Shown here in pieces: positions 5,027 to 43,292 of a DNA stretch of 64,000 bases (position 1 is the first letter of the stretch; each line of letters begins with the position of its first letter). The position numbers were made by a program, and so were the translations under genes. The notes below the pieces were generated by a model. That model did not search any database. It saw only the letters and a program-made list of their open reading frames with translations, and had not been told where the DNA came from. Source of the stretch: an uncultured Candidatus Berkelbacteria bacterium (GTDB lineage Bacteria > Patescibacteriota > UBA1384 > UBA12157 > JAENIV01); the NCBI GenBank assembly GCA_963698075.1, contig OY969116.1, positions 798,131 to 862,130 of the forward strand. Direction: 5' to 3'.

Positions 5027-6118
5027 ATGTTAAGAGCTTATTTACCACCTTTAATTATTTCTGCCTTGATGGTTTTTGGGCTGACTTATTACGTCAAAAT
5101 CCTGGCGGAAAAATTTAAAATTTTTGATTGGCCGGCTCCCAGAAAAATCCATCCCAAACCGATTCCACGTTTGGGTGGGATGGCGATTGTGGTCGCTTTT
5201 TTAATTTTGGTCATCGGCTATTCCTTGGCCTCTCACCGGCTCAATTTCTCCGGGTTTGAGATTTTAAAGGTTGATAAAAGACTAGTCGGCGTGATTTTGG
5301 GTCTTTTGATTTTACTGACTGTTGGCATTTTTGATGATATTCGGGGGATCAGGCCCTGGAAGAAATTGTTTTGGCATATTTTAGCCGCCGCCATGGTTGT
5401 CCTTTTCGGTCTTTCGGTCAGTTATGTCCGTTTGCCCTTTGGTGAACATCTTGATTTGACGACTTTACAAATCCCGATCTCGCTCTTCGATCACGGTTTT
5501 AACTTTGTCGTCTGGGGCGATTTGTTGACCATTTTTTGGATCGTTCTTTTGATTAATACTTTTAATTTTCTCGATGGACTCGATGGTTTATCTTCGGGGA
5601 TTGCCGCCATCACCGGAGGGGTGATTTTTTTCTTAAGTTTAGCCTTAGTCCAAGACGCCAATGCCTTGTTGGCCGTTTTAATTACGGGGGTATGTCTTGG
5701 TTTTTTGCCCTGGAATTTTAACCCAGCCAGAATCTTCTTGGGTGATTCCGGTTCGATGAGCCTGGGTTTTTTAATCGGAGTTTTATCAATCATTTCCGGC
5801 GGGAAACTGGCAACCGCTTTTTTGGTTTTGGGAATTCCGGTTTTGGATGTTGGATGGGTAGTGTTAAGGCGATTATTTAGTGGGATTTCGCCTTTTGCGG
5901 CGGATAAAAAACATCTTCACCATCGCTTATTAACCGCCGGTCTTTCCCAGCGTCAGGCAGTCATTGTCTTGTATTTGATTGCGATTGTCTTTGGTTCGGT
6001 GGCAGTGGTGGCTTCCACCCAAGCAAAAATTAATGCCATTTTGATCCTTTCGGGGCTGATGGCCGCTTTAGCTTTGGTTTTAGTTAGATTAGAATGGAGA
6101 AAGAGAGATAAAATCTAA
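5027..6118 (+). CDS. WecA/TagO/MraY-family polyprenyl-phosphate N-acetylhexosamine-1-phosphate transferase
   Basis: PRLGG, DDxxG, NxxNFLDGLDGL and GDSGS motifs in a multi-TM protein. Confidence 0.8.
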   Translation: MLRAYLPPLIISALMVFGLTYYVKILAEKFKIFDWPAPRKIHPKPIPRLGGMAIVVAFLILVIGYSLASHRLNFSGFEILKVDKRLVGVILGLLILLTVGIFDDIRGIRPWKKLFWHILAAAMVVLFGLSVSYVRLPFGEHLDLTTLQIPISLFDHGFNFVVWGDLLTIFWIVLLINTFNFLDGLDGLSSGIAAITGGVIFFLSLALVQDANALLAVLITGVCLGFLPWNFNPARIFLGDSGSMSLGFLIGVLSIISGGKLATAFLVLGIPVLDVGWVVLRRLFSGISPFAADKKHLHHRLLTAGLSQRQAVIVLYLIAIVFGSVAVVASTQAKINAILILSGLMAALALVLVRLEWRKRDKI

Positions 6119-6228
6119 GGAAGGGAAATGGAAAAGAGATCTTGTCAACGGACTTTACTAATCATTCTTATAATTTTAGTTATTTTAGGCATGGTTGGCG
6201 TCTTCGTCGGCCAGATTTGGAAGTAGAT

Positions 6229-6984
6229 TTAGTTTTTCTTTGCCATTCTCCAGGCCATTTCAAAGAAATTTCGATATGAGTTCGCAATATTTTCGCTCTC
6301 AATTAAGATCACAAAAACCTCTTTTCTAAGCGAGAAAATCGCCAGTTTATTGCCAAAAATCATATTATCGTTTTCTTGAAATTCAATCCCTCTGGGAAAA
6401 AACCTGATTTGATGGTTTGGATTGGCATTTTGGCTAATTTTTTTAAGATAATCAGAATCTTTCAGTTCTTCTTTCATCAAAATTTCTCGGGCTTTGAATC
6501 TTTTATTTTTCATCGCCCGAACCCACATATCGAGCAAATCTTTATATTCCTCCAAAAAATGCTTGGTAGAGCCAAAGTAGAGGACTTCTTTGCCGGTTTT
6601 AAGATTTTCTGCCATCTCTCGGTAGATTAACTCCACGCCCGCCCGGCCCTCAAAAACCTGAATCGAGGGCTTATGGGGCTGCTCATGATAAAACCTGTCT
6701 AATTCAGGTAGGACTTTTTCCAGGGTATCTTTTTGTTTTTCGATTTTCAAGAGTAATTTAGTCGGGGAAATAACTGAATAAAAGGTAACTTTGGGAGTTT
6801 TTTTGATGGCAACTAAACCGTGTTTTTTGAGTTTTTCTAAGATAAAATAAACGGTTGAGCGCTTAAGACCGCTTCTTTGGGCGAGATTGTAGGCCGTCTC
6901 CTGACCCATTTTAAGGGAGGCGAGATAGACCTTCGCCTCCTTTTCATTTAAACCGATTGTCTCCAAAACCTCTTCAATCCTCAT
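6229..6984 (-). CDS. TrmB-family transcriptional regulator
   Basis: N-terminal TrmB winged HTH (LNEKEAKVYLASLKMGQETAYNLAQRSGLKRSTVYFILEKL). Confidence 0.75.
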   Translation of the reverse strand: MRIEEVLETIGLNEKEAKVYLASLKMGQETAYNLAQRSGLKRSTVYFILEKLKKHGLVAIKKTPKVTFYSVISPTKLLLKIEKQKDTLEKVLPELDRFYHEQPHKPSIQVFEGRAGVELIYREMAENLKTGKEVLYFGSTKHFLEEYKDLLDMWVRAMKNKRFKAREILMKEELKDSDYLKKISQNANPNHQIRFFPRGIEFQENDNMIFGNKLAIFSLRKEVFVILIESENIANSYRNFFEMAWRMAKKN

Positions 6985-7099
6985 ATCTTAAGTATACCAT
7001 AAATAGGAGCCAGTGTCAATATTTTCGACAACACTATAAACGACATAAGATTACAATACTTCAATAAACCATATAAACACGCATAAATAGTCTAAAGTA

Positions 7100-7128
7100 T
7101 TGACAATATCGAGGGCATATGGTATACT
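7100..7128 (+). promoter_or_regulatory. sigma70-type promoter (TTGACA-17-TGgTATACT)
   Basis: TTGACA at 7100-7105 and TATACT at 7123-7128, directly upstream of GC-rich island B. Confidence 0.5.
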
Positions 7129-7170
7129 CTATAGTTGTAAAATCGAACCTTGACAAGAAGGGAGAAAAGG

Positions 7171-7392
7171 GTGTCATATTCCGTTGATATGTGCTTATTG
7201 TTACTGGTTAGTTGCTTCGTCATCTTGATATTGGTTGTAGTCGGATTCGGCATCTGGTTTGATTTGCGGCATGAAGCGGGTAAGAAAATCCCACCTTTTT
7301 GGTTTCGTGTCTACCTGCTGCTGGTCTGGTGCTGGTTGTTTATTACTGTTTGGGTTCTAGCGGCAAAACACATAAAGGAGTGTTTCCGATGA
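7171..7392 (+). CDS. small two-TM Trp-rich membrane protein (island B), hypothetical
   Basis: GTG start with a GGGAG RBS. Its stop overlaps the downstream start in an ATGA junction, so the two genes are translationally coupled. Confidence 0.4.
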   Translation: MSYSVDMCLLLLVSCFVILILVVVGFGIWFDLRHEAGKKIPPFWFRVYLLLVWCWLFITVWVLAAKHIKECFR

Positions 7393-8795
7393 AAGATGCT
7401 CTGATTTCCCCTCAGGAATTCAAGGCCAATCCGTATCTCGATCCGGACTGGGAGGAATCGACCGGACTGGGTTATCTCGGAGCCGTAGCCCAAGAAATGG
7501 GCCATGAGGTCAAGCTCTTTGTGCCAACTACCGAGACGCTGTCCGAACTCTGCCGCGAGGTGATCGCCTGGAAGCCGGATGTCGTCGGTCTGCAACTCTA
7601 CACCTGCCAAGTGCCTGACGGACTGGCGATGACCAAGAGAATCAGAAAGGCTTTGCCTAGCGCGCTTATCGTGGCCGGAGGGCCTCACCCGAGCGCCCTG
7701 CCGAATGTCATCTCTGAATCAGCTATTGACCTGGCCGTAATCGGTGAGGGCGAAGAGACCTGGCGCGAGATTCTAAGAGTCTGTGAGGCCGGAAGTCGGG
7801 ATTTCAGTCAGATTCAAGGGCTCGCTTACAAGGACAGGGGCGGAAGAGTAACTCGGACTGAGTCAAGACCAAGAATTGATGATCTCGGAAAGTTGCCCTC
7901 GTCACCAATGAGGATTGACCCGCGCCAGTTCCGATACCAGCCAGGCGATCCTTGCAGTCTCTACTATCCGGAACCCTCGAGAGTCATATGTATTTCGGAT
8001 GTGGCTGGTAGGGGTTGCACCCACAACTGTCGTTTCTGCAGTTCCCCGAAGCTCTGGGAACGTTGCTACAAGGTTCGTTCTTGTGGTGACGTAGCTGAGG
8101 AGAGCTTCGTTGGTCCCAAAGAGAAATGGGGAGTCAACCTAGTTTTCATGGAAGACCTGACATTTTCGCTGGCTCCAAAATGGGTTGAGTTGTTCTGCAA
8201 GCAGCTTCTCGTGCGGAAGATTAACATGAACTGGTGGTGCCAGACAACGGTGCGATCAGTCACGCCAGAACTTCTGGCGTTGATGCGAAAGGCTGGCTGC
8301 CGGACGGTCGCCTGGGGAATTGAAGCAACAGATGAAGCCAGCCAAAAGTGGATGGGCGAGAAGCAATCTCTAGAGGAGACGAGGTTGGTGCTAGATGCGG
8401 CGGCCAAGCTCGGCATCATCAACTGGGGCTACGTGGTATTTGCTTGGCCTACCCAGACGCTCGATGCGGTCTGGAGAAATGCGATGGAACTTCGAAAACT
8501 CAACCTCCACCGCATCCGGCTTTCAATCGCCACCCCATTGCCTGGTTCGGAATGGTTCGACGATTTCCATGCTGGTGAGCTCTCGACCGACTGGCGGCTC
8601 TTTGACACCGACCACCTCGTCTTTGACCACCCACACATCGGTCCAACCGAGATCCGTGAGGTCCGGGCCGAGATCTTCAGCCAGTTCTACTCGTCGAAGG
8701 CATATCGAGGGCGCGTCGAGCAGTTCGTGGCCCGTTTTCCGGAGCTCGAGCAGAGCTTCACCGAATTCTTCGCCTACACCATGAAGTTCGTGTAG
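7389..8795 (+). CDS. B12-binding domain radical SAM enzyme
   Basis: N-terminal cobalamin-binding domain (DVVGLQ...IVAGGPHPS) and radical SAM cluster motif CTHNCRFC; ~57% GC. Confidence 0.8.
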   Translation: MKDALISPQEFKANPYLDPDWEESTGLGYLGAVAQEMGHEVKLFVPTTETLSELCREVIAWKPDVVGLQLYTCQVPDGLAMTKRIRKALPSALIVAGGPHPSALPNVISESAIDLAVIGEGEETWREILRVCEAGSRDFSQIQGLAYKDRGGRVTRTESRPRIDDLGKLPSSPMRIDPRQFRYQPGDPCSLYYPEPSRVICISDVAGRGCTHNCRFCSSPKLWERCYKVRSCGDVAEESFVGPKEKWGVNLVFMEDLTFSLAPKWVELFCKQLLVRKINMNWWCQTTVRSVTPELLALMRKAGCRTVAWGIEATDEASQKWMGEKQSLEETRLVLDAAAKLGIINWGYVVFAWPTQTLDAVWRNAMELRKLNLHRIRLSIATPLPGSEWFDDFHAGELSTDWRLFDTDHLVFDHPHIGPTEIREVRAEIFSQFYSSKAYRGRVEQFVARFPELEQSFTEFFAYTMKFV

Positions 8796-8801
8796 GTTTG
8801 G

Positions 8802-8836
8802 GCCCCGTCTAGATGTTTAGACGGGGCTTCTTTTTT
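8802..8836 (+). terminator. rho-independent terminator
   Basis: GCCCCGTCTA-gatgttt-TAGACGGGGC, then a T-run. Confidence 0.6.
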
Positions 8837-8865
8837 AACTGAAGAATTGATAAGATAGAATTAGA

Positions 8866-9399
8866 ATGAAAGACCAATCTCAATTTACTTTTGAAGGTCA
8901 GCGGACGGATGAGGATGTGATTTTTGTTTTAAAACAACATCCCTGGGTACTTTCGAATGCTGGTTTTATCGGGGTTGTTTTGGTTATTGTGTTGATTTTA
9001 GCGATCTTATTTTGGGGTCTTTCGGCCATTACCAGCATCGTAATTATTTTGATCGTGCTCTTTGTTTTTGTCTATGGTGGCTATCGTTGGTTTTTATATA
9101 ATAATTCACTCTATATCTTAACCAATCAAAGAATGATTATCATGGAGCAGGCCAACCTTTTTTCTAGACGTTTAAATGAAACCGAATTAGATAAAATTCA
9201 AAATATGGTGGCCGAAATTAAAGGTCCAATTAAAACTTTCTTAAATTTCGGCAACATAAAAATTACCACCGCTGGCGTTGATCCGATCATCATAATTAAA
9301 AATGTCGAAAACCCTTACGAAGTTCAGCAGAAAATCATTAAATATAGTAAGAACATTCCTACGCTTTCATCACCGCCGAATAAAAATATTATTCGATAA
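8866..9399 (+). CDS. membrane protein with bacterial PH (bPH_2/YdbT-like) domain
   Basis: FTFEGQRTDEDVIFVLKQHPWVL motif followed by TM helices. Confidence 0.5.
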   Translation: MKDQSQFTFEGQRTDEDVIFVLKQHPWVLSNAGFIGVVLVIVLILAILFWGLSAITSIVIILIVLFVFVYGGYRWFLYNNSLYILTNQRMIIMEQANLFSRRLNETELDKIQNMVAEIKGPIKTFLNFGNIKITTAGVDPIIIIKNVENPYEVQQKIIKYSKNIPTLSSPPNKNIIR

Positions 9400-9400
9400 A

Positions 9401-9646
9401 TTAGAGTACTTTTTCGATCTCTTTCTCGTCGAAACCAATAATCACCTGCCTGCCGGCAGGCAGGCCTTGACGCTCGATCACAATTACTGGCACACCCATT
9501 TGACCGGAAAGCTTGACCATTTCCTCGGCTTTCTTTTGGTCACGAGAAACATTAATATCCTCAAATGGTAGTTTTTTGGAGCTGAAATATTCTTTGGCCA
9601 TCTGGCAATTGGGGCAAGTCGGGGTAGTATAAATAGTGATTTTCAT
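9401..9646 (-). CDS. glutaredoxin-like (NrdH/thioredoxin-fold) protein
   Basis: CPNC active-site motif; 81 aa. Carries an in-frame GC palindrome encoding LPAGRQ. Confidence 0.7.
   Translation of the reverse strand: MKITIYTTPTCPNCQMAKEYFSSKKLPFEDINVSRDQKKAEEMVKLSGQMGVPVIVIERQGLPAGRQVIIGFDEKEIEKVL
9445..9464. repeat. perfect 20-bp GC-rich palindrome CCTGCCTGCCGGCAGGCAGG inside the glutaredoxin CDS
   Basis: In-frame; encodes LPAGRQ. Confidence 0.7.
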
Positions 9647-24861: not shown

Positions 24862-24971
24862 TTTATCCAAAATTTTTAATTGAACTCAGTAATTATCAAA
24901 GCTTTTTTGATTGTTTTTTTAAGCTTTATCTGTTAGAATAATCTTAACTCGAAGTGGGGAGGACGTTGAGA

Positions 24972-25778
24972 ATGGCACGTGCGGCCTGGATTGTCATTAT
25001 CGCTGTCGTCGTCTGCACTTTCATAGGCGTACAAGTGTACGACAACCAGATGGTTCCAACGATGAAGAAGATCCAGGTTGTCTGTGATGATCCCAAACAC
25101 CAAGGCAACCGAGTCGTCTTGACTGATGAGAAACCGACTATCGCTAAAAGAAAGGATGCTCGTCACGAGATTGTCGAAGTCCAGCGTACCTCTGCCTGTC
25201 TGCAATGCCAGAAGCGCAAAGAGCAAGAATTCCAGATTGCCAGATCAAGAGCCGAGACAGATGATCTGATAAGGCATCTTGATTATCATTTCGCGTTCGA
25301 GCTAGCTTTCGCCACTGAATATGTTCGAGAGAAGTCATTGCCACCAGGCGGCGGGATCACCTTCCACGTTGATGTTAAGAATAAAGGATCTAGCGTCATC
25401 GAAGGGTTGCGGTTTATTGTTCAGCCCGTAAGCTATCTCTATTTGACGCCATTCCGGGAGGTTTCGGTATTCGACCGGGCATTACACGATGTTCACGTTG
25501 GCTACGACAAGAAGGACGCCGCGCTCTTGAAGAATCTGACGACCACTGGCTTGGCCGTCTGCGACTACCAAGGACGCAGCAAGCTTTTCCCTCAGGGTAA
25601 TCCCTATTATCCGGAAAACGTGGGTTATTGTGACACGGCGTTTATGTTGCGCGGTCGATTGGCGTTGAGTCCTAAACTCCAACCTGGTCAGGATGTCCAG
25701 TTCCAGGGATACCTCATCTACAAGAATAAGAAGATTCCCCTCGGTACCCTGACGGTCCACGTTATGTATCCTGGCTAA
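24972..25778 (+). CDS. membrane-anchored hypothetical protein (GC-rich island E)
   Basis: GGGAGGA RBS; N-terminal TM helix (AAWIVIIAVVVCTFIGV); no recognisable domain; ~57% GC. Confidence 0.4.
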   Translation: MARAAWIVIIAVVVCTFIGVQVYDNQMVPTMKKIQVVCDDPKHQGNRVVLTDEKPTIAKRKDARHEIVEVQRTSACLQCQKRKEQEFQIARSRAETDDLIRHLDYHFAFELAFATEYVREKSLPPGGGITFHVDVKNKGSSVIEGLRFIVQPVSYLYLTPFREVSVFDRALHDVHVGYDKKDAALLKNLTTTGLAVCDYQGRSKLFPQGNPYYPENVGYCDTAFMLRGRLALSPKLQPGQDVQFQGYLIYKNKKIPLGTLTVHVMYPG

Positions 25779-25802
25779 CCCCCACCACCAGTCATCATCA
25801 AG

Positions 25803-25829
25803 GCGGTCGGAAGTTTTCGGCCGCTTTTA
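25803..25829 (+). terminator. terminator hairpin
   Basis: GCGGTCGG-aagttt-TCGGCCGC (G:U wobbles) followed by TTTT. A second hairpin follows at 25829-25858 and shares GCGAAGGCGGG with the island D terminator. Confidence 0.45.
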
Positions 25830-25919
25830 CCCGCCAGTAGCTTTATGCGAAGGCGGGTTTCGTTATCCATTGAAAATTTAAGAGAACTTTGAGAGAATAA
25901 GACAAGAAAGAGAGAACTA

Positions 25920-26726
25920 ATGTCTAAAATTGATAAAACTGCCTTCCACCTCGAACATCATTCCCGCGATTTGGGGCTTTTAACCGAAGAAGAACAACAA
26001 AAAATTGATGACACAACGTTGCTTATCGCCGGTTGTGGGGTTGGCTCGCTGATTGCTATCTCTGCCGCTCGGCTCGGTTTTGAAAAATTCGTCCTCGTCG
26101 ACGGCGACAAAGTGGAATTATCTAATATCAATCGTCAGGGATATAGTTCTCACGATGTCGGTAAATTCAAAGTCAATGCTTTAGCCAAAAGACTCCGTCA
26201 AATTAATCCCCACATTCAAATCAAAAAATACCCGGTTTTTGTTGATCTTGGAAACGCCGCCCGATTAGTCCACAAGGCCGATATTATTATTGATACAATT
26301 GATCCTACTGCGGCCCAAGCCGTCATTGCCATGCACCGGGCGGCCCAAAGAGAACATAAAACCATTATTGGGCCGATGGATGTTGGCTGGGGGGGATTGC
26401 TTCAAATTTTTACCCCCGATTCAATTTCCTATGAGAAAATGATTGGTCTTGATCCAGAAACGCCAGTGGAAAAAATCAGCAACGAAGAGGGCTATGGTAA
26501 ATTCGTCCAATATTTCATCAAATTTTTGCCGGAATATGTGCAGAAGATGGCGATGGAAGTGGTTGAGGGCAAGCGTAAACATTATCCACAGCCCGTTTCC
26601 GCCGCCTATATTTTATCTGCCATGACGGTGATGGCCGCCAAGCGAGTGGCCAATGATGAGCCAATTATTACTGCTCCCGATTATATTTCTTTTGATCCCA
26701 ACGAGGTTTTAAAGCCAAAAAAATGA
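25920..26726 (+). CDS. ThiF/MoeB/HesA-family E1-like adenylyltransferase
   Basis: LLIAGCGVGSLIAISAARLGF...LVDGDKVELSNINRQ nucleotide-binding motif; 268 aa, with no N-terminal peptide-clamp domain. Confidence 0.85.
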   Translation: MSKIDKTAFHLEHHSRDLGLLTEEEQQKIDDTTLLIAGCGVGSLIAISAARLGFEKFVLVDGDKVELSNINRQGYSSHDVGKFKVNALAKRLRQINPHIQIKKYPVFVDLGNAARLVHKADIIIDTIDPTAAQAVIAMHRAAQREHKTIIGPMDVGWGGLLQIFTPDSISYEKMIGLDPETPVEKISNEEGYGKFVQYFIKFLPEYVQKMAMEVVEGKRKHYPQPVSAAYILSAMTVMAAKRVANDEPIITAPDYISFDPNEVLKPKK

Positions 26727-28030
26727 ACAAGAGATCCTTAACCCTCATCTTAATCGGCTTGGCAATTGCTGATCTTTTAGGCGCGATTGATGCCACCGGC
26801 GTTAACATTGCTTTGCCGAAAATCACTCGCGATTTGGCCATCCCCATCACCATTTCCCAGTGGATTCCCAACGCTTACACTCTAGTCCTCGTTTCTACCT
26901 TGTTATTTTTCGGCAAAATCGGCGATTCAATTGGGGTCAAAAAACTTTATCTTTTTGGCCTAATATTGTTTGGTCTGGCTTCAGCCATCTTGGGTTTTAT
27001 TAATAATCCTTATCTTCTCATCGCCATTCGCGGACTTCAGGGGTTGGGAACCGCGATTTTATACACTATGCCAATGGCCATCATTGCTCATCTTTGGCAA
27101 GACCGCGAAAAAGCTTTTTCAGTCACCGCCTCATTTTTTGCCGGCGGCATGCTTGTTGGCCCATTAATCGGCGGCGTTTTTACCAATTTAAATTTTGGCA
27201 ATTTCCACGGCTGGCATTTAATTTTTTTACTTAACATTCCCTTTATTATTTTTGGTCTGATTGTCGCTACCAAATTTATCCCGGAATTGCCTTCCCAAAA
27301 AATCAAAATCGATTTTTTGAGCGTCTTAATGCTTTTGGTTGGCCTGGCCCTTATCATTCTTTCTTTGACGATTATTAGTAAATGGTATCTGCTCGCCGGA
27401 GTGGGGATCTTGCTTTTGCTCTTTTTCTATGAAAAGAAAGTCGCCAATCCATTATTGGATTTTTCTTTATTTAAAAACCGCACTTTTACGGCCTTCAATA
27501 TCGTCAGCGCTTTGGCAATGGTAACAATTATTGGCATGAGTTTTGTTTTAACTTTTTATTTGCAGGATATTTTGAAATGGAATTCTTTGCAGGCGGGCTT
27601 GGCTCTCTTGCCCGTGCCAGCAGCTACCGGCGTGGTCTCGATTTTGGCGGGCCGAATGAAAAACTGGAAATTGGCGGCGTTTTTAACTAGCGGCTTGATT
27701 TTGGCCGGGATTTTACTTTTAACCCAAATTCATCCGTCCATTTCCTACTACAAATTGATTTTGCCGGCGATGGTTTTAATCGCCGCTGGTTCCGGCTTTT
27801 TGATGACCGTTGGTTTTGCCGCTATTTTGGGCTCGGCCCCAACTGAAAAATCCGGTAGCGCTTCGGGAATTTTGAATACCCTACAGCAATTAGGCGGTTT
27901 GATCGGCATCGCTTTAGTGGCGGCCATTGTCTTAAACTATTCTTTGGCTTTTTATATTCTGGTGATCGCCGCCTTGATAGGACTAATTGCCGCCTTTTTT
28001 GTTAAAAAGGCAGAAAATATTTCAATTTGA
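26723..28030 (+). CDS. MFS transporter (EmrB/QacA-like efflux)
   Basis: ~12-14 TM helices with MFS motifs; ATGA-overlap coupling with the upstream ThiF gene. Confidence 0.85.
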   Translation: MNKRSLTLILIGLAIADLLGAIDATGVNIALPKITRDLAIPITISQWIPNAYTLVLVSTLLFFGKIGDSIGVKKLYLFGLILFGLASAILGFINNPYLLIAIRGLQGLGTAILYTMPMAIIAHLWQDREKAFSVTASFFAGGMLVGPLIGGVFTNLNFGNFHGWHLIFLLNIPFIIFGLIVATKFIPELPSQKIKIDFLSVLMLLVGLALIILSLTIISKWYLLAGVGILLLLFFYEKKVANPLLDFSLFKNRTFTAFNIVSALAMVTIIGMSFVLTFYLQDILKWNSLQAGLALLPVPAATGVVSILAGRMKNWKLAAFLTSGLILAGILLLTQIHPSISYYKLILPAMVLIAAGSGFLMTVGFAAILGSAPTEKSGSASGILNTLQQLGGLIGIALVAAIVLNYSLAFYILVIAALIGLIAAFFVKKAENISI

Positions 28031-40981: not shown

Positions 40982-41908
40982 TTGAAAATACTTAAGAATC
41001 TTTACGGTAAAGAAAAAAACGATGAGTATTTCAAGTTGCTTTTATCGGCCGGGGAAGGGTTTTTAGTAGAAACGTTGATTGGTAAATGTGTCGTTTCAAA
41101 AAAAGGACTTTTTCCTAAACTAAATCTCCCAGATAGTTCTTTAAGAAAAACACACGTGTTCTGTTGTGTTTCTACTCAAATTGGCTGCGTCAACACTTGT
41201 CGTTTTTGCAATAATCGAAAAAAGCGCTTCGTAAGAAATTTAAGTCTGTCAGAAATAAAACAAGAGGTAGATGAAGCTCAAAAAATCTCCCGAAAATTCT
41301 TTGGTCAGAGACTGGAGGAAATTCAATTCGGGGGGATTGGTGAGCCGCTTCTGAATTTGGAAAATGTTATCCGGACAATCGAAATCTTTCACAAGGAAGA
41401 CCAAAATGTCTTTTTTGGGTTTCCGACAACTGGCTTACCGCTAAAAAATTTTCAAAAATTGATTAGAAAATTTTCTGACAAACTCTTGCCAATTTACTTA
41501 CAGATCTCTTTGCACGCCTCAAATGATATTCTTAGGAAAAAAATAATGGGTGTGGGAAACATCCGTCAGATTATACAACTGGCCCAAGAATATTCGGAAA
41601 AGGTTAAATCTCCTGTTATTATTAACTACTTAATGATTCGACAAGTTAATGATCAAATCTGCTTTGCGGATGAGCTCATCCGTTTGTTAGACCAACATTC
41701 GTTAACAAATAAGGTGGTTGTCAAACTATCAATACCAAATGATACAAACACGAAATTTAGCTGTCCGTCGGATGAAAAAAGAATAGACGAATTTAAAGAA
41801 AGACTCGTATCGGCTGGAATTGATGTGGCTGTCTTCGTTAGCGGGGGGAAATCTGTGAAAGCCGGGTGCGGTCAACTTACGGTTTCCCATCAAAAAATCC
41901 AAAAATAA
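40982..41908 (+). CDS. RlmN/Cfr-family radical SAM RNA methyltransferase-like protein
   Basis: CVSTQIGCVNTCRFC cluster motif, GIGEPLLN, and C-terminal GGKSVKAGCGQL, which matches the RlmN second catalytic Cys. Confidence 0.7.
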   Translation: MKILKNLYGKEKNDEYFKLLLSAGEGFLVETLIGKCVVSKKGLFPKLNLPDSSLRKTHVFCCVSTQIGCVNTCRFCNNRKKRFVRNLSLSEIKQEVDEAQKISRKFFGQRLEEIQFGGIGEPLLNLENVIRTIEIFHKEDQNVFFGFPTTGLPLKNFQKLIRKFSDKLLPIYLQISLHASNDILRKKIMGVGNIRQIIQLAQEYSEKVKSPVIINYLMIRQVNDQICFADELIRLLDQHSLTNKVVVKLSIPNDTNTKFSCPSDEKRIDEFKERLVSAGIDVAVFVSGGKSVKAGCGQLTVSHQKIQK

Positions 41909-42144: not shown

Positions 42145-42390
42145 GTGTTGAAAACCGCCGAAGGAGTCAGATTCAGTCCCACGGAACCTCTGGTCTACCA
42201 CGATCAGGATTTGTTTGAGGCTAACGAAGTCACCTTGCGGATTCTCGATCTCTGTCAGCAGCCGCAGGACCAGGAGGATCTAGTCGCCCGGCTCGGTTGC
42301 GAATATCAGGTCGCCGAGAACGAATTGGCAGATGATGTTTCCGCTATCGTCTCCGACCTGGTTCAATGCGGCATTCTGGTGGAAGTGTGA
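42145..42390 (+). CDS. PqqD-family RiPP recognition element protein
   Basis: 81 aa with the PqqD pattern (EANEVTLRILDLC...QEDLVARL...DVSAIVSDLVQCGIL); GTG start with AAAGGAGAAAGG RBS. Confidence 0.65.
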   Translation: MLKTAEGVRFSPTEPLVYHDQDLFEANEVTLRILDLCQQPQDQEDLVARLGCEYQVAENELADDVSAIVSDLVQCGILVEV

Positions 42391-43292
42391 TGGCCAGCGT
42401 CTATCCCGTCACCGTCATGTGGAACTTCGGCTATCAGTGCAATATGAATTGCATCCACTGCTACTCAAGACAAGACGCCAGGGCAAACATCGAACACGAA
42501 ATGACACTGGTGCAGGCCGAGCACATTGCTGCCGAGATAATCGCCGCCAAAGCCGTCCATACCCATTTCGGAGGGGGTGAGTCCTTGATGAGACCAGACT
42601 TTGGTCCGATCGCTTCCTCACTGACGAGCACCGGCATTAACGTGAGTCTAAGTTCCAATGGGGCGTTTATCGATGAAAGCACAGCGAATCTCCTTCGAGT
42701 TATACCTCTCGATTTTGTTTCCTTGAGTTTTCACGGTATCAAAGCCGCAACGCACGACGCATTCACCCGTCATCCGGGTTCTTTCGACGGTTTGCTACGA
42801 GCGGCTACCATTCTCAAGGCGGCCGGCGTGAGGACGAAGATCGTTTTCTCGCTCCACGCTCGTAGCAGAGATGAGGCCCCCGGGGTCTTTGATCTGGCGC
42901 GAGAGTGCGGTGTTACCTTCGTGCAGTTTGCCTATGTCAAAGCCGTGGGAAACGCGGCCGAAAACCTCACAAGTTTGCAGTTGAGTCCTTCAGAATGGGT
43001 AGCTTTGTATTCGGCAATCCGCACCCAGGCCGAATCTTACCCTGATCTGAATATTCACTTTGGTCTAGACAACAATCCCATAATCGCAGGCTATGTGGGG
43101 CAAACCATTCTCCCATGTCCGTGCGGAAGATATTCGATCGCAATCAAGCCCAATGGGGATGTCTCCCCGTGCAATGTCGTTACTACCGTCGTGGGAAACG
43201 TCTATCGCCAATCCCTGCTCGATATTTGGCAAGAGGCACCGGAGCTTATCAAAATCCGCTCCGGGACGGCAAATCCCTGCGCCTCCTTTTAA
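42390..43292 (+). CDS. radical SAM enzyme with C-terminal SPASM/twitch domain (PqqE-like peptide maturase)
   Basis: CNMNCIHC cluster motif near the N-terminus and a C-terminal CPCG...SPC auxiliary-cluster Cys motif; 1-nt overlap with the PqqD-like gene. Confidence 0.8.
   Translation: MASVYPVTVMWNFGYQCNMNCIHCYSRQDARANIEHEMTLVQAEHIAAEIIAAKAVHTHFGGGESLMRPDFGPIASSLTSTGINVSLSSNGAFIDESTANLLRVIPLDFVSLSFHGIKAATHDAFTRHPGSFDGLLRAATILKAAGVRTKIVFSLHARSRDEAPGVFDLARECGVTFVQFAYVKAVGNAAENLTSLQLSPSEWVALYSAIRTQAESYPDLNIHFGLDNNPIIAGYVGQTILPCPCGRYSIAIKPNGDVSPCNVVTTVVGNVYRQSLLDIWQEAPELIKIRSGTANPCASF

Follow-up and report, generated by a model that had tools for sequence, protein, structure and literature searches.

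A TrmB-linked accessory module that couples a small predicted membrane protein to a class B radical SAM protein in a Patescibacteria-type genome

We found that a small open reading frame with two predicted transmembrane helices and the gene for a radical SAM (rSAM) protein with a B12-binding domain form a bicistronic unit in the 64,000-nucleotide stretch of DNA analyzed here (the window). The unit is part of an optional, accessory module that lies behind a conserved TrmB-type regulator in a Patescibacteria (CPR)-type genome. Judging from comparisons of related loci, the payload (small ORF plus enzyme) lies between conserved regulatory flanks and appears to have been replaced, or to have diverged very rapidly, as one unit. 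Our tentative interpretation is that this is a TrmB-controlled optional module in which a membrane adaptor would serve a class B rSAM enzyme acting on a membrane-associated substrate.

The small ORF (7171..7392, + strand; GTG start, TGA stop at 7390-7392) encodes 73 amino acids, five of them Trp. The enzyme gene (7389..8795, + strand; 468 aa) begins with an ATG at 7389-7391 that shares bases with this TGA, giving an ATGA overlap. The start at 7389 was confirmed by alignment, as 11 of 11 relatives begin MK(I/V)A. These features bear out the initial annotation, which had described a small, Trp-rich, two-TM ORF coupled by ATGA to a B12-binding rSAM gene.

The operon is bounded by a near-consensus promoter and a terminator. 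The promoter-like site (7100..7128, + strand) reads TTGACA-17-TATACT with an extended -10 TG and agrees with the consensus at 11 of 12 positions. This stretch is 90% identical to the DNA of one related locus (L002) and is also kept in another (L005). The regulator gene has a promoter-like site of the same form on the opposite strand (6991..7019, - strand; TTGACA-17-TATACT with an extended -10 TG, 11/12 positions), which is an inverted copy of the first (inverted repeats I2 and I4). Reading of the sequence places a Shine-Dalgarno site, GGGAG (7160..7164, + strand), 6 nt ahead of the GTG of the small ORF, and at the equivalent aligned position L002 and L005 have GGAG/GGGAGG followed by a start codon. 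A second such site, AAGGAG (7375..7380, + strand), lies within the small ORF, 8 nt ahead of the ATG of the enzyme gene. An intrinsic-terminator-like hairpin (8800..8829, + strand; 13 pairs, then a T run) begins 5 nt past the stop codon of the enzyme gene; its GGGGCTTCTTTTTT tail and the spacer downstream are common to the window and L005. We also considered whether a riboswitch or leader RNA precedes the rSAM gene and rejected this. An Rfam E-value scan of 6000-9500 gave two sub-threshold sRNA matches, both on the terminator.

The steadiest neighbor of the enzyme is the regulator gene (6229..6984, - strand), which is divergent from the operon and encodes a TrmB-family HTH transcriptional regulator of 251 aa. 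The N-terminal winged helix belongs to Pfam PF01978 (57.9 bits; cut-off 25.6). Its counterparts in L002 and L005 are 84-85% identical to it, and its homologues, from Patescibacteria and Parcubacteria, carry the names TrmB or HTH protein; about 30 orthologues (P0131-P0160) share at least 45% identity with it. Divergent TrmB genes were found in 7/7 informative loci of the P0001-P0008 subclade of the enzyme and in none of >160 distant loci. The regulator gene belongs to the same module as the small ORF and the enzyme, and the small membrane protein is not the enzyme's only partner, as had been supposed. A defense system was considered and rejected: PADLOC gave no match for the rSAM protein or the small ORF, and only the HTH part of TrmB resembled defense models (Csa3/CasR HTH domains).

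The module is absent from the closest relative of the window. In that locus (L176; DnaE 84% and MraY-like protein 89% identical to those of the window), the TrmB gene, the small ORF and the rSAM gene are all missing. Protein identity between the window and L002 is 84% for TrmB and 71-77% for housekeeping proteins, as against 45% for the enzyme. DNA identity between the two is 90% in the promoter and drops to 27-48% over the small ORF. Conservation takes in the promoter, the leader and the Shine-Dalgarno site, and the conserved flank starts again at the terminator, past the payload. Base composition changes at the payload as well. The rSAM gene has a GC content of 0.55 and a GC3 of 0.64, with the flanking genes at about 0.42 and 0.44, respectively, and the GC3 of the small ORF is 0.53, compared to about 0.44 in host genes.

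The enzyme is a member of the radical SAM superfamily. It contains a CxxxCxxC motif for a [4Fe-4S] cluster, recognized by reading of the sequence (C210-x3-C214-x2-C217; 8016..8039, + strand), whose three cysteines are invariant in 72 relatives. Residues 207-362 match Pfam PF04055 (Radical_SAM; 57.6 bits, cut-off 29.5), and the Foldseek matches share rSAM cores. An N-terminal B12-binding Rossmann-type domain (residues 25-128; 7461..7772, + strand; Pfam PF02310, 58.7 bits, cut-off 32.1) points to class B, and cobalamin binding is predicted. This domain includes the GGPHPSA and GEGE motifs, of which G97, G98, H100, P101, G119, E120 and G121 are invariant throughout the 12-member clade. The AlphaFold model of the enzyme (pLDDT 94.6) is consistent with this assignment: its best Foldseek matches (TsrM, AprD4, MgmA, CysS, OxsB and TokK) are all class B rSAM proteins. 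We identified no membrane-binding feature on the model.

The clade to which the enzyme belongs is rare, with ~12 proteins among 5.8 billion. Scans of GTDB genomes and JGI metagenomes with the clade profile gave 160 loci, of which only L087 belonged to the close clade; the rest were used as controls. A phage origin was rejected, as a scan of viral contigs gave only relatives at 23-32% identity. The window protein is the long branch of the clade and departs from 7 of 43 widely conserved positions (K324E, G352A and S313A included), the most of the 72 relatives. Sliding comparisons, made to look for mosaic recombination within the rSAM, placed its N-terminal ~60 residues nearer to L002 and L005 (57-68% identity) than the remainder, with no clean breakpoint.

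Compared to curated families, the enzyme missed every cut-off. The initial annotation had named BchE, HpnR or another known family as assignments that would speak against its proposal, and the enzyme falls within none of these, nor within HpnJ. It resembles the BchE / P-methylase type (COG1032; BchE, HpnJ, HpnR) in its domain order, with a B12-binding Rossmann domain at the N-terminus and then a radical SAM barrel that carries CxxxCxxC, and the BchE model aligned at near full length to residues 25-439. However, it scored 129 bits against BchE (TIGR02026; cut-off 481), 112 bits against HpnJ (TIGR03471; cut-off 578) and 103 bits against HpnR (TIGR04367; cut-off 650), which places it outside all three. 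There were no bacteriochlorophyll or photosynthesis genes and no hopanoid (hpn) genes in its neighborhood. Unlike that type, the enzyme resides in a reduced Patescibacteria-type genome, its partners being a regulator of the TrmB family and a small membrane ORF.

The closest structural matches have diverse substrates. The tryptophan C2-methyltransferase TsrM (PDB 6wte) was the best Foldseek match (E = 7e-22, TM 0.65), and its substrate recalls the Trp-rich partner in the window. The likeness is structural only, with 20% identity and a TIGR04428 score of 21 (cut-off 500), outside the family; TsrM, whose substrate in thiostrepton biosynthesis is free Trp, also carries an additional domain at its C-terminus. 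The protein-modifying B12-rSAM methylase MgmA/QCMT (PDB 9ccb; TM 0.67-0.74) ranked in the top three by structure and second by sequence among PDB entries. It is comparable in size to the window protein (about 420-450 aa) and likewise has no large extra domains. Again the likeness is structural only (19% identity; TIGR04014 score 53, cut-off 360), and MgmA, a glutamine methylase, and Mmp10 modify methyl-coenzyme M reductase in methanogens, a substrate that is absent here. The best PDB sequence match was the radical SAM diol dehydratase AprD4 (PDB 6fd2; E = 2.6e-30, 18% identity; NF033070 score 40, cut-off 500), which also had the highest TM-score (0.73). AprD4 functions in aminoglycoside biosynthesis without methylating and carries a B12 domain without being a B12-dependent methylase. 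Because a top structural match does not methylate, the chemistry cannot be read from the fold alone, and methylation is therefore the commonest chemistry of the class rather than a prediction for the window enzyme.

A small ORF adjoining a B12-rSAM gene is also found with the C-methyltransferases of RiPP pathways (ApyD, PoyC-type, TIGR03975). The enzyme scored below threshold against ApyD (NF050148; 117 bits, cut-off 750) and against TIGR03975 (48 bits, cut-off 282), and so belongs to neither. RiPP systems use a leader-core peptide; the small ORF in the window encodes a two-helix membrane hairpin instead. We found no protease, transporter/exporter or RiPP recognition domain adjoining the enzyme gene. 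The small ORF does not behave as a RiPP precursor gene, since it is found in only 5 of 12 loci, shows no common motif and is an orphan in the window.

Several properties of the small ORF are those of a gene. It has a coding-type periodicity, with a T content of 0.51 at codon position 2, compared to 0.37 at position 1 and 0.27 at position 3. Only 0.045% of 20,000 shuffles gave a frame both open and equally hydrophobic, indicating that the ORF is more than chance. The product is predicted to be a poorly conserved helical-hairpin membrane protein, with two hydropathy segments and, in the AlphaFold model (pLDDT 83), two long helices (residues 3-35 and 42-72). We considered that 'LVSC' near the N-terminus might mark a lipoprotein and rejected this. 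The hydrophobic run extends 15 residues beyond the Cys, and the region is therefore read as a transmembrane helix, not a signal peptide. An exhaustive HMMER search of 1.84 billion representatives gave no credible homologue of the protein. Three weak matches were judged to be driven by composition; two were to very long proteins and gave no aligned segment, and the remaining one (P0127, 271 aa) aligned only to the hydrophobic region at residues 23-59. The ORF is also absent from the gene calls of the public Logan contig L001. Because it is an orphan with no close relative, the case for its translation is built on position, Shine-Dalgarno site, periodicity and analogy.

Membrane partners recur upstream of the enzyme across the clade. 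Small hydrophobic ORFs lie directly upstream of the rSAM gene in 5/12 clade loci (the window, L002, L087, L005 and L169; 36-103 aa, the 36-aa ORF being that of L005) compared to 3/145 distant B12-rSAM loci. Fisher tests gave p = 0.006 with a strict hydropathy criterion and 5e-5 counting all five, values that overstate independence, as the 12 loci, several of them on short contigs, are phylogenetically clustered. Two further loci (L174 and L171) have polytopic membrane proteins of 292-304 aa in this position, for a total of 7/12 loci with a membrane partner directly upstream. In three loci no membrane partner adjoins the enzyme; L006, for example, has no hydrophobic small ORF, and its 34-aa ORF is not hydrophobic. 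In L167 and L173 a class I methyltransferase occupies the position of the small ORF. The pairing on which the initial annotation focused thus recurs, but it is neither constant nor made with one conserved family.

By sequence comparison, the upstream partners are mostly not homologous to one another. Tested against a profile of the L002 and L087 small ORFs, the window ORF scored below 986 of 1000 shuffles, and those of L005 (p about 0.05) and L169 (p about 0.02) were borderline. A second profile, built from the two polytopic partners, gave no match to any small ORF. The recurring trait is therefore membrane character, not sequence. Four of the five small ORFs are Trp-rich (5.6-6.8%). Between L002 and L087, the frame of the small ORF stays open despite a 24-nt in-frame indel and an altered stop/start overlap. 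The dN/dS ratio for this pair is 0.62 for the small ORF and 0.12 for the enzyme, and this weak constraint fits an anchor better than a precisely recognized substrate.

Based on these results we propose, with due reserve, the adaptor model introduced above. The two near-identical promoters, facing apart, would drive the TrmB gene on one side and, on the other, a two-gene transcript ending at the terminator. The 73-aa protein would be a membrane adaptor, produced in fixed ratio with the enzyme, and would tether an otherwise soluble rSAM protein to the membrane. The enzyme's target there would be associated with the membrane, for instance a membrane protein, a scavenged lipid or a molecule linked to a polyprenyl chain, and the radical reaction would most likely be a C-methylation that depends on B12. 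Our results might also indicate that the small ORF does not act through a protein product, which we consider unlikely, if the most serious of the alternatives. It could be a leader ORF that sets or couples rSAM expression, or a chance frame in a T-rich 5' leader, with the enzyme acting alone on a soluble or scavenged metabolite and, in some genomes, together with a class I methyltransferase. The orphan status of the window ORF, its omission from public gene calls, the weak constraint where measurable, the 36-aa ORF of L005 and the non-hydrophobic ORF of L006 are all consistent with this, as is a methyltransferase partner in three loci. Moreover, a Met-Lys start (ATG AAA) is enough to produce the ATGA overlap, since any upstream ORF in that frame has to stop there, and the basic C-terminal tails owe part of their sequence to the purine-rich Shine-Dalgarno site of the rSAM gene. 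However, a chance frame or mere leader accords poorly with the strong codon-position signal, the rarity of comparable shuffles, the alignment of Shine-Dalgarno site and start codon in three loci, the scarcity of small hydrophobic ORFs upstream of distant B12-rSAM genes and the preservation of the L002/L087 frame. In addition, if the small ORFs were discounted, the intergenic gaps would be 290-590 nt, which is long for such compact genomes.

The small membrane protein might instead be the substrate of the enzyme. We regard this as rather improbable, and less so only than the two readings that follow. Much as RiPP methylases or Mmp10/MgmA do, the enzyme would modify its neighbor post-translationally, for example by C-methylation of Trp or aliphatic residues, to yield a modified membrane micro-protein, and enzyme and substrate would be exchanged as a cassette. 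Co-transcription, translational coupling and the apparent joint replacement of the two genes agree with such a relationship, as do the Trp content of the small ORFs, the use of Trp or a protein side chain by two of the top three structural matches (TsrM and MgmA, respectively) and the sub-threshold likeness to ApyD. However, L006 has no small ORF and L167 and L173 have a methyltransferase in its place, so the small protein cannot generally be the substrate. The partners range from 36 to 304 aa with no common motif, the accessory functions of RiPP pathways were not found beside the enzyme, constraint on the small ORF is weak, and structural matches to small-molecule enzymes are equally good. 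The initial annotation had offered a substrate peptide or a membrane scaffold as roles for the small protein; the scaffold now seems the likelier, and an obligatory substrate is disfavored. A bolder version appears quite improbable: a Patescibacteria-specific, B12-type rSAM that modifies its own co-encoded Trp-rich membrane micro-protein to give a RiPP-like protein embedded in the membrane, with cassettes of matched enzyme and substrate exchanged behind a conserved TrmB switch, perhaps varying the cell surface in episymbiosis. Finally, the window rSAM could be a copy in decay or drifting in function, and the operon a remnant that no longer functions, as its deviant conserved columns, its long branch and the dispensability of the module (missing from L176) might suggest. 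We consider this very improbable. The reading frame is uninterrupted over its 468 codons and still encodes every cluster cysteine and both the GGPHP and the GEGE motif, the AlphaFold model is very confident, and the promoter, terminator and Shine-Dalgarno site show no damage. Nearly as many departures (6/43 columns) are seen in several other members of the family.

Class B radical SAM enzymes catalyze alkylations that are chemically demanding. For most class B subfamilies the substrate is not known, and Patescibacteria are not known to make B12. The clade described here places such an enzyme, in ultra-small Patescibacteria, in a cassette that is optional and framed by a regulator, and usually beside a membrane partner. 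The locus is one in which the coding payload seems to have been exchanged and the promoter, Shine-Dalgarno site and terminator retained. If the adaptor model is correct, a disposable micro-protein would here bring a soluble radical enzyme to the membrane, and the model would suggest that organisms unable to make their own lipids modify scavenged ones or components of the envelope. We found no paper on the rSAM clade or on the pairing of the small ORF with the enzyme. Work on the family is limited in practice by its great rarity (~12 sequences) and by its origin in uncultured organisms.

A second Trp-rich small protein in the window, the 89-aa product of island A, had been grouped with the 73-aa protein of island B (the module described here) in one proposed family of modified membrane peptides or lipid-modifying modules. 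We rejected this link. The island A protein is a separate conserved family. Among the loci first compared, tblastn found it only in the window and in L001. It was absent from the examined part of L002, where the rSAM module is present, and it occurs in L176, from which the rSAM module is missing.

We found that the window carries a bicistronic operon, framed by a divergent TrmB gene, that encodes a class B radical SAM (rSAM) enzyme of a rare clade. The first gene, a small ORF of 73 codons at 7171-7392 (+), starts with GTG at 7171, has GGGAG six bases ahead of this start, and stops with TGA at 7390-7392. The rSAM gene (+; 468 aa) has its ATG at 7389-7391 and its own AAGGAG eight bases ahead. 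We confirmed that the stop of one gene and the start of the other overlap as ATGA, as the initial annotation had read. An MK(I/V)A start is found at the aligned position in 11/11 of the closest rSAM relatives, indicating that 7389 is the true rSAM start. The overlap results from this Met-Lys start (ATG AAA) and is by itself no evidence. The basic C-terminal tails of the small ORFs owe part of their coding sequence to the purine-rich rSAM Shine-Dalgarno site.

A consensus scan predicted two promoters, each with an 11/12 match and an extended -10 element. One (7100-7128, +) lies just 5' of the small ORF, and its inverted twin (7019-6991, -) would serve the TrmB-family regulator gene (PF01978; 6229-6984, -); the two are mutual inverted repeats. 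The sole terminator-like hairpin in the scan (8800-8829, +) begins five bases past the rSAM stop codon. Based on this promoter and terminator, the region originally marked at 7100-8840 is one promoter-to-terminator unit of two genes. The leader matched no Rfam family, riboswitches included. The GC content of the rSAM gene is 0.55 and its GC3 is 0.64, compared to about 0.42 and 0.44 in its neighbors.

In the rSAM protein, Pfam identified a B12-binding domain at 58.7 bits (PF02310) and a Radical_SAM domain at 57.6 bits (PF04055), the latter carrying C210-x3-C214-x2-C217. By domain criteria, the protein belongs to the broad class B. No NCBIfam model matched at its curated cut-off: scores were 129 bits for BchE (cut-off 481), 117 for ApyD (750), 112 for HpnJ (578), 103 for HpnR (650), 53 for the MgmA type (360) and 21 for the TsrM type (500). 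The enzyme thus lies outside the well-characterized families, of which the initial annotation had named BchE and HpnR. Membership in BchE, HpnR, HpnJ, ApyD, MgmA, TsrM and AprD4 was rejected as below curated thresholds. The best PDB structural matches of an AlphaFold model built on 72 relatives (pLDDT 94.6) were TsrM, AprD4, MgmA, CysS, OxsB and TokK (TM 0.64-0.73, identity 12-20%), and a PDB sequence search returned the same set. Because these are all class B radical SAM proteins and no NCBIfam cut-off was reached, the protein is a class B enzyme of an uncharacterized subfamily. Uncharacterized B12-rSAM subfamilies are common.

The clade is small. Among 5.8 billion clustered proteins, only eleven full-length relatives at 33-47% identity were found (P0002-P0012; the window's enzyme is P0001); the next hits were generic B12-rSAMs, at ≤35% identity. 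From GTDB genomes and JGI metagenomes we obtained just one further close-clade locus, L087, encoding P0002, and from a viral scan none. The window's enzyme differs at 7/43 widely conserved columns, the highest count in the set of 72 relatives, but retains all cofactor motifs. Literature searches returned nothing on this clade or on the pairing of TrmB with a small membrane ORF, and the main text of a 2026 review of B12-dependent rSAM enzymes does not contain 'membrane' or 'lipid' (PMC12931638).

We compared the gene directly 5' of rSAM, on the same strand, in the 12 clade loci. A small hydrophobic ORF is present in five: the window (73 aa), L002 (92 aa), L005 (36 aa), L087 (≥77 aa, truncated where the contig ends) and L169 (103 aa, with a 72-nt gap). 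The other seven have another partner or none, so the small ORF is not always paired with rSAM. In L174 and L171, the position is occupied by a polytopic membrane protein of 292-304 aa that matches no Pfam family, and in L167 and L173 by a class I SAM methyltransferase (Methyltransf_11/UbiE-like). L006, L172 and L175 have no convincing upstream partner. In L171, the same kind of methyltransferase sits 3' of rSAM. Non-homologous membrane proteins thus recur directly 5' of rSAM, and some clade members are without one.

As a control, we scored distant B12-rSAM loci with enough flank for a 30-130-aa ORF that has a hydropathy segment and ends between -100 and +4 nt relative to the start of rSAM. Only 3/145 had a comparable ORF (Fisher p = 0.006 for the three clade loci passing this strict criterion and 5e-5 for all five, although the loci are related and independence is overstated). 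The small ORF had been taken as the enzyme's only partner. This does not hold, as a divergent TrmB gene is present in 7/7 informative loci of the P0001-P0008 subclade (window, L002, L005, L006, L167, L169 and L173). It was found in none of >160 distant B12-rSAM loci. By name, the TrmB homologues derive from MAGs of Patescibacteria, Parcubacteria and Vogelbacteria.

At 6687-9037, L167 contains a second, very divergent B12-binding radical-SAM-like protein (490 aa) adjoining its own divergent TrmB gene. The first TrmB-methyltransferase-rSAM module is immediately adjacent, suggesting that the combination of TrmB with a B12-rSAM is used repeatedly in these genomes. In the P0009-P0011 branch, an NTP_transf_5-like putative nucleotidyltransferase accompanies rSAM (L171 2691-3467, L174 2-454, L175 3006-3806; 37-43% mutual identity), with no TrmB.

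Judged by sequence, the small ORFs appear mostly not to be one family. Those of L002 and L087 are clearly homologous (53% identity, with a 24-nt in-frame indel). Their stop/start overlap is ATGA in one and TGATG in the other, indicating that the frame relative to rSAM changed while the protein was kept. They are weakly constrained (dN/dS 0.62, dS 0.54), whereas the adjacent enzyme genes are strongly constrained (dN/dS 0.12, dS 1.1). The 36-aa ORF of L005 may be an internally deleted relative (shuffle p about 0.05 against the L002/L087 profile), with a similar N-terminal helix and PDWLKKRRERR compared to RDWMFARRRR. The L169 ORF is borderline (p about 0.02), and the window's ORF scored below 986/1000 shuffles against the same profile. 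The polytopic partners of L174 and L171 share only 23% identity, and neither matches any small ORF.

We found that the module is accessory. L176, located via the island A protein (below), is the window's closest relative (MraY-like transferase 89%, NDK 86%, DnaE 84% identity). It has the same backbone without TrmB, small ORF or rSAM, and a 23S-rRNA-intervening-sequence-protein gene (PF05635; L176 12449-12949) in place of the whole module. The module is therefore gained or lost as a unit. In the relatives (also L002, 7802-8173), the PF05635 gene lies between the MraY-like or rSAM gene and a bPH gene, with A/G-rich repeats (CTAAGAA/CAAAGAA type) on either side; the window has no such gene at this site.

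The small ORF and rSAM (the payload) are discordant with their surroundings. Between the window and L002, M16 peptidase (72%), NDK (76%), MraY-like transferase (77%), DnaE (73%) and TrmB (84%) are well conserved, compared to 45% identity for rSAM and no BLAST hit for the small ORF. At the DNA level, identity is 75-82% at the TrmB 5' end, 90% in the + strand promoter, 27-48% in the small ORF and about 70% in the first 150 nt of rSAM. Leader, Shine-Dalgarno site and start codon align across the window, L002 and L005, as do the terminator tail and the spacer up to the next gene between the window and L005. L002 and L005 have housekeeping proteins 56-68% identical, yet their rSAMs are 76% identical. 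In a neighbor-joining tree, P0001 is a long-branch sister of P0002-P0004 (46-47% identity), at a distance similar to that separating P0002-P0004 from the enzymes of non-syntenic genomes. The payload has been either replaced or diverged unusually fast between conserved regulatory flanks. The sharp 5' boundary and the compositional shift (L002 small ORF and rSAM GC3 0.54 and 0.52, host genes 0.31-0.42; the window's small ORF is intermediate, 0.53) would point rather to xenologous replacement. The better conservation of the rSAM N-terminus leaves room for accelerated divergence in place. TrmB (6229-6984, -) is 80-85% identical among the window, L002 and L005, compared to 55-77% for housekeeping proteins; the cargo it presumably controls includes the least conserved gene of the region. 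The clade is uncharacterized and rare, and its class B rSAM sits in an accessory cassette whose membrane partner varies. The swapped-payload architecture, and the presumed dependence of the host genome on external B12 and lipids, are the points of interest.

The 73-aa protein resembles a genuine hydrophobic product, with 5 Trp, two hydropathy segments and, in the AlphaFold prediction, two long helices (3-35 and 42-72, pLDDT 83). In 20,000 shuffles, the frame was open in only 2%, and open and equally hydrophobic in only 0.045%. We suggest that the small protein would be a membrane adaptor, co-produced with the enzyme, that places rSAM at the membrane, where the enzyme would methylate a membrane-associated substrate by radical and probably B12-dependent chemistry. 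A membrane partner, as first proposed, is plausible. In the window's own pair, the small protein might also be the substrate of rSAM. However, L006 lacks a small ORF, a methyltransferase takes its place in L167 and L173, partner sizes span 36 to 304 aa, and the cluster contains no RiPP-type accessory genes. Alternatively, the small ORF might matter only for rSAM translation or be fortuitous. This explanation still carries considerable weight, as the window's ORF is an orphan: searching 1.84 billion representatives exhaustively with HMMER returned no credible homologue. It is weakened by codon periodicity (T frequency 0.37/0.51/0.27 at positions 1/2/3), by the aligned Shine-Dalgarno site and start codon, and by the low control frequency (3/145).

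The GC-rich island A contains an 89-aa ORF (2041-2310, +; 10 Trp, two hydrophobic segments, GC 0.61, GC3 0.76). Its five homologues at 61-74% identity (P0121-P0125; no Pfam family) show that it is a real conserved gene. The public gene call on the same sequence (L001) has instead an overlapping Arg-rich 225-aa frame at 1893-2570. The gene is syntenic in L176-L179, between genes for a PhdYeFM-domain protein and an M16 peptidase. One family of modified membrane peptides had been proposed to span both islands. Our results argue that the islands are independent: the island A family occurs in L176, where the rSAM module is missing, and was not detected in the retrieved part of L002, where the module is present; its protein has no similarity to the 73-aa ORF. 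The protein at 848-1678 (-; 276 aa, 70% identical in L176) has an N-terminal PhdYeFM antitoxin domain (32.9 bits) and then a long, Pro-rich stretch of low complexity, which gives rise to a local peak in GC.

In a second GC-rich island (42145-43292, +; GC 0.54), the gene for an 81-aa PqqD-like protein (PF05402, 41.7 bits) overlaps at its end with the beginning of a radical SAM/SPASM gene (best NCBIfam match GeoRSP rSAM, 164 bits, cut-off 400). The two are a RiPP-type maturase pair, for which no precursor was identified. Directly 5' is an RlmN-like radical SAM protein (40982-41908, +; TIGR00048, 164 bits, below the 290-bit cut-off). GC is also raised (0.45-0.49) at 24954-28030 (+), where a gene for a 274-aa protein without a Pfam match is followed by genes for a ThiF-family protein and an MFS transporter.
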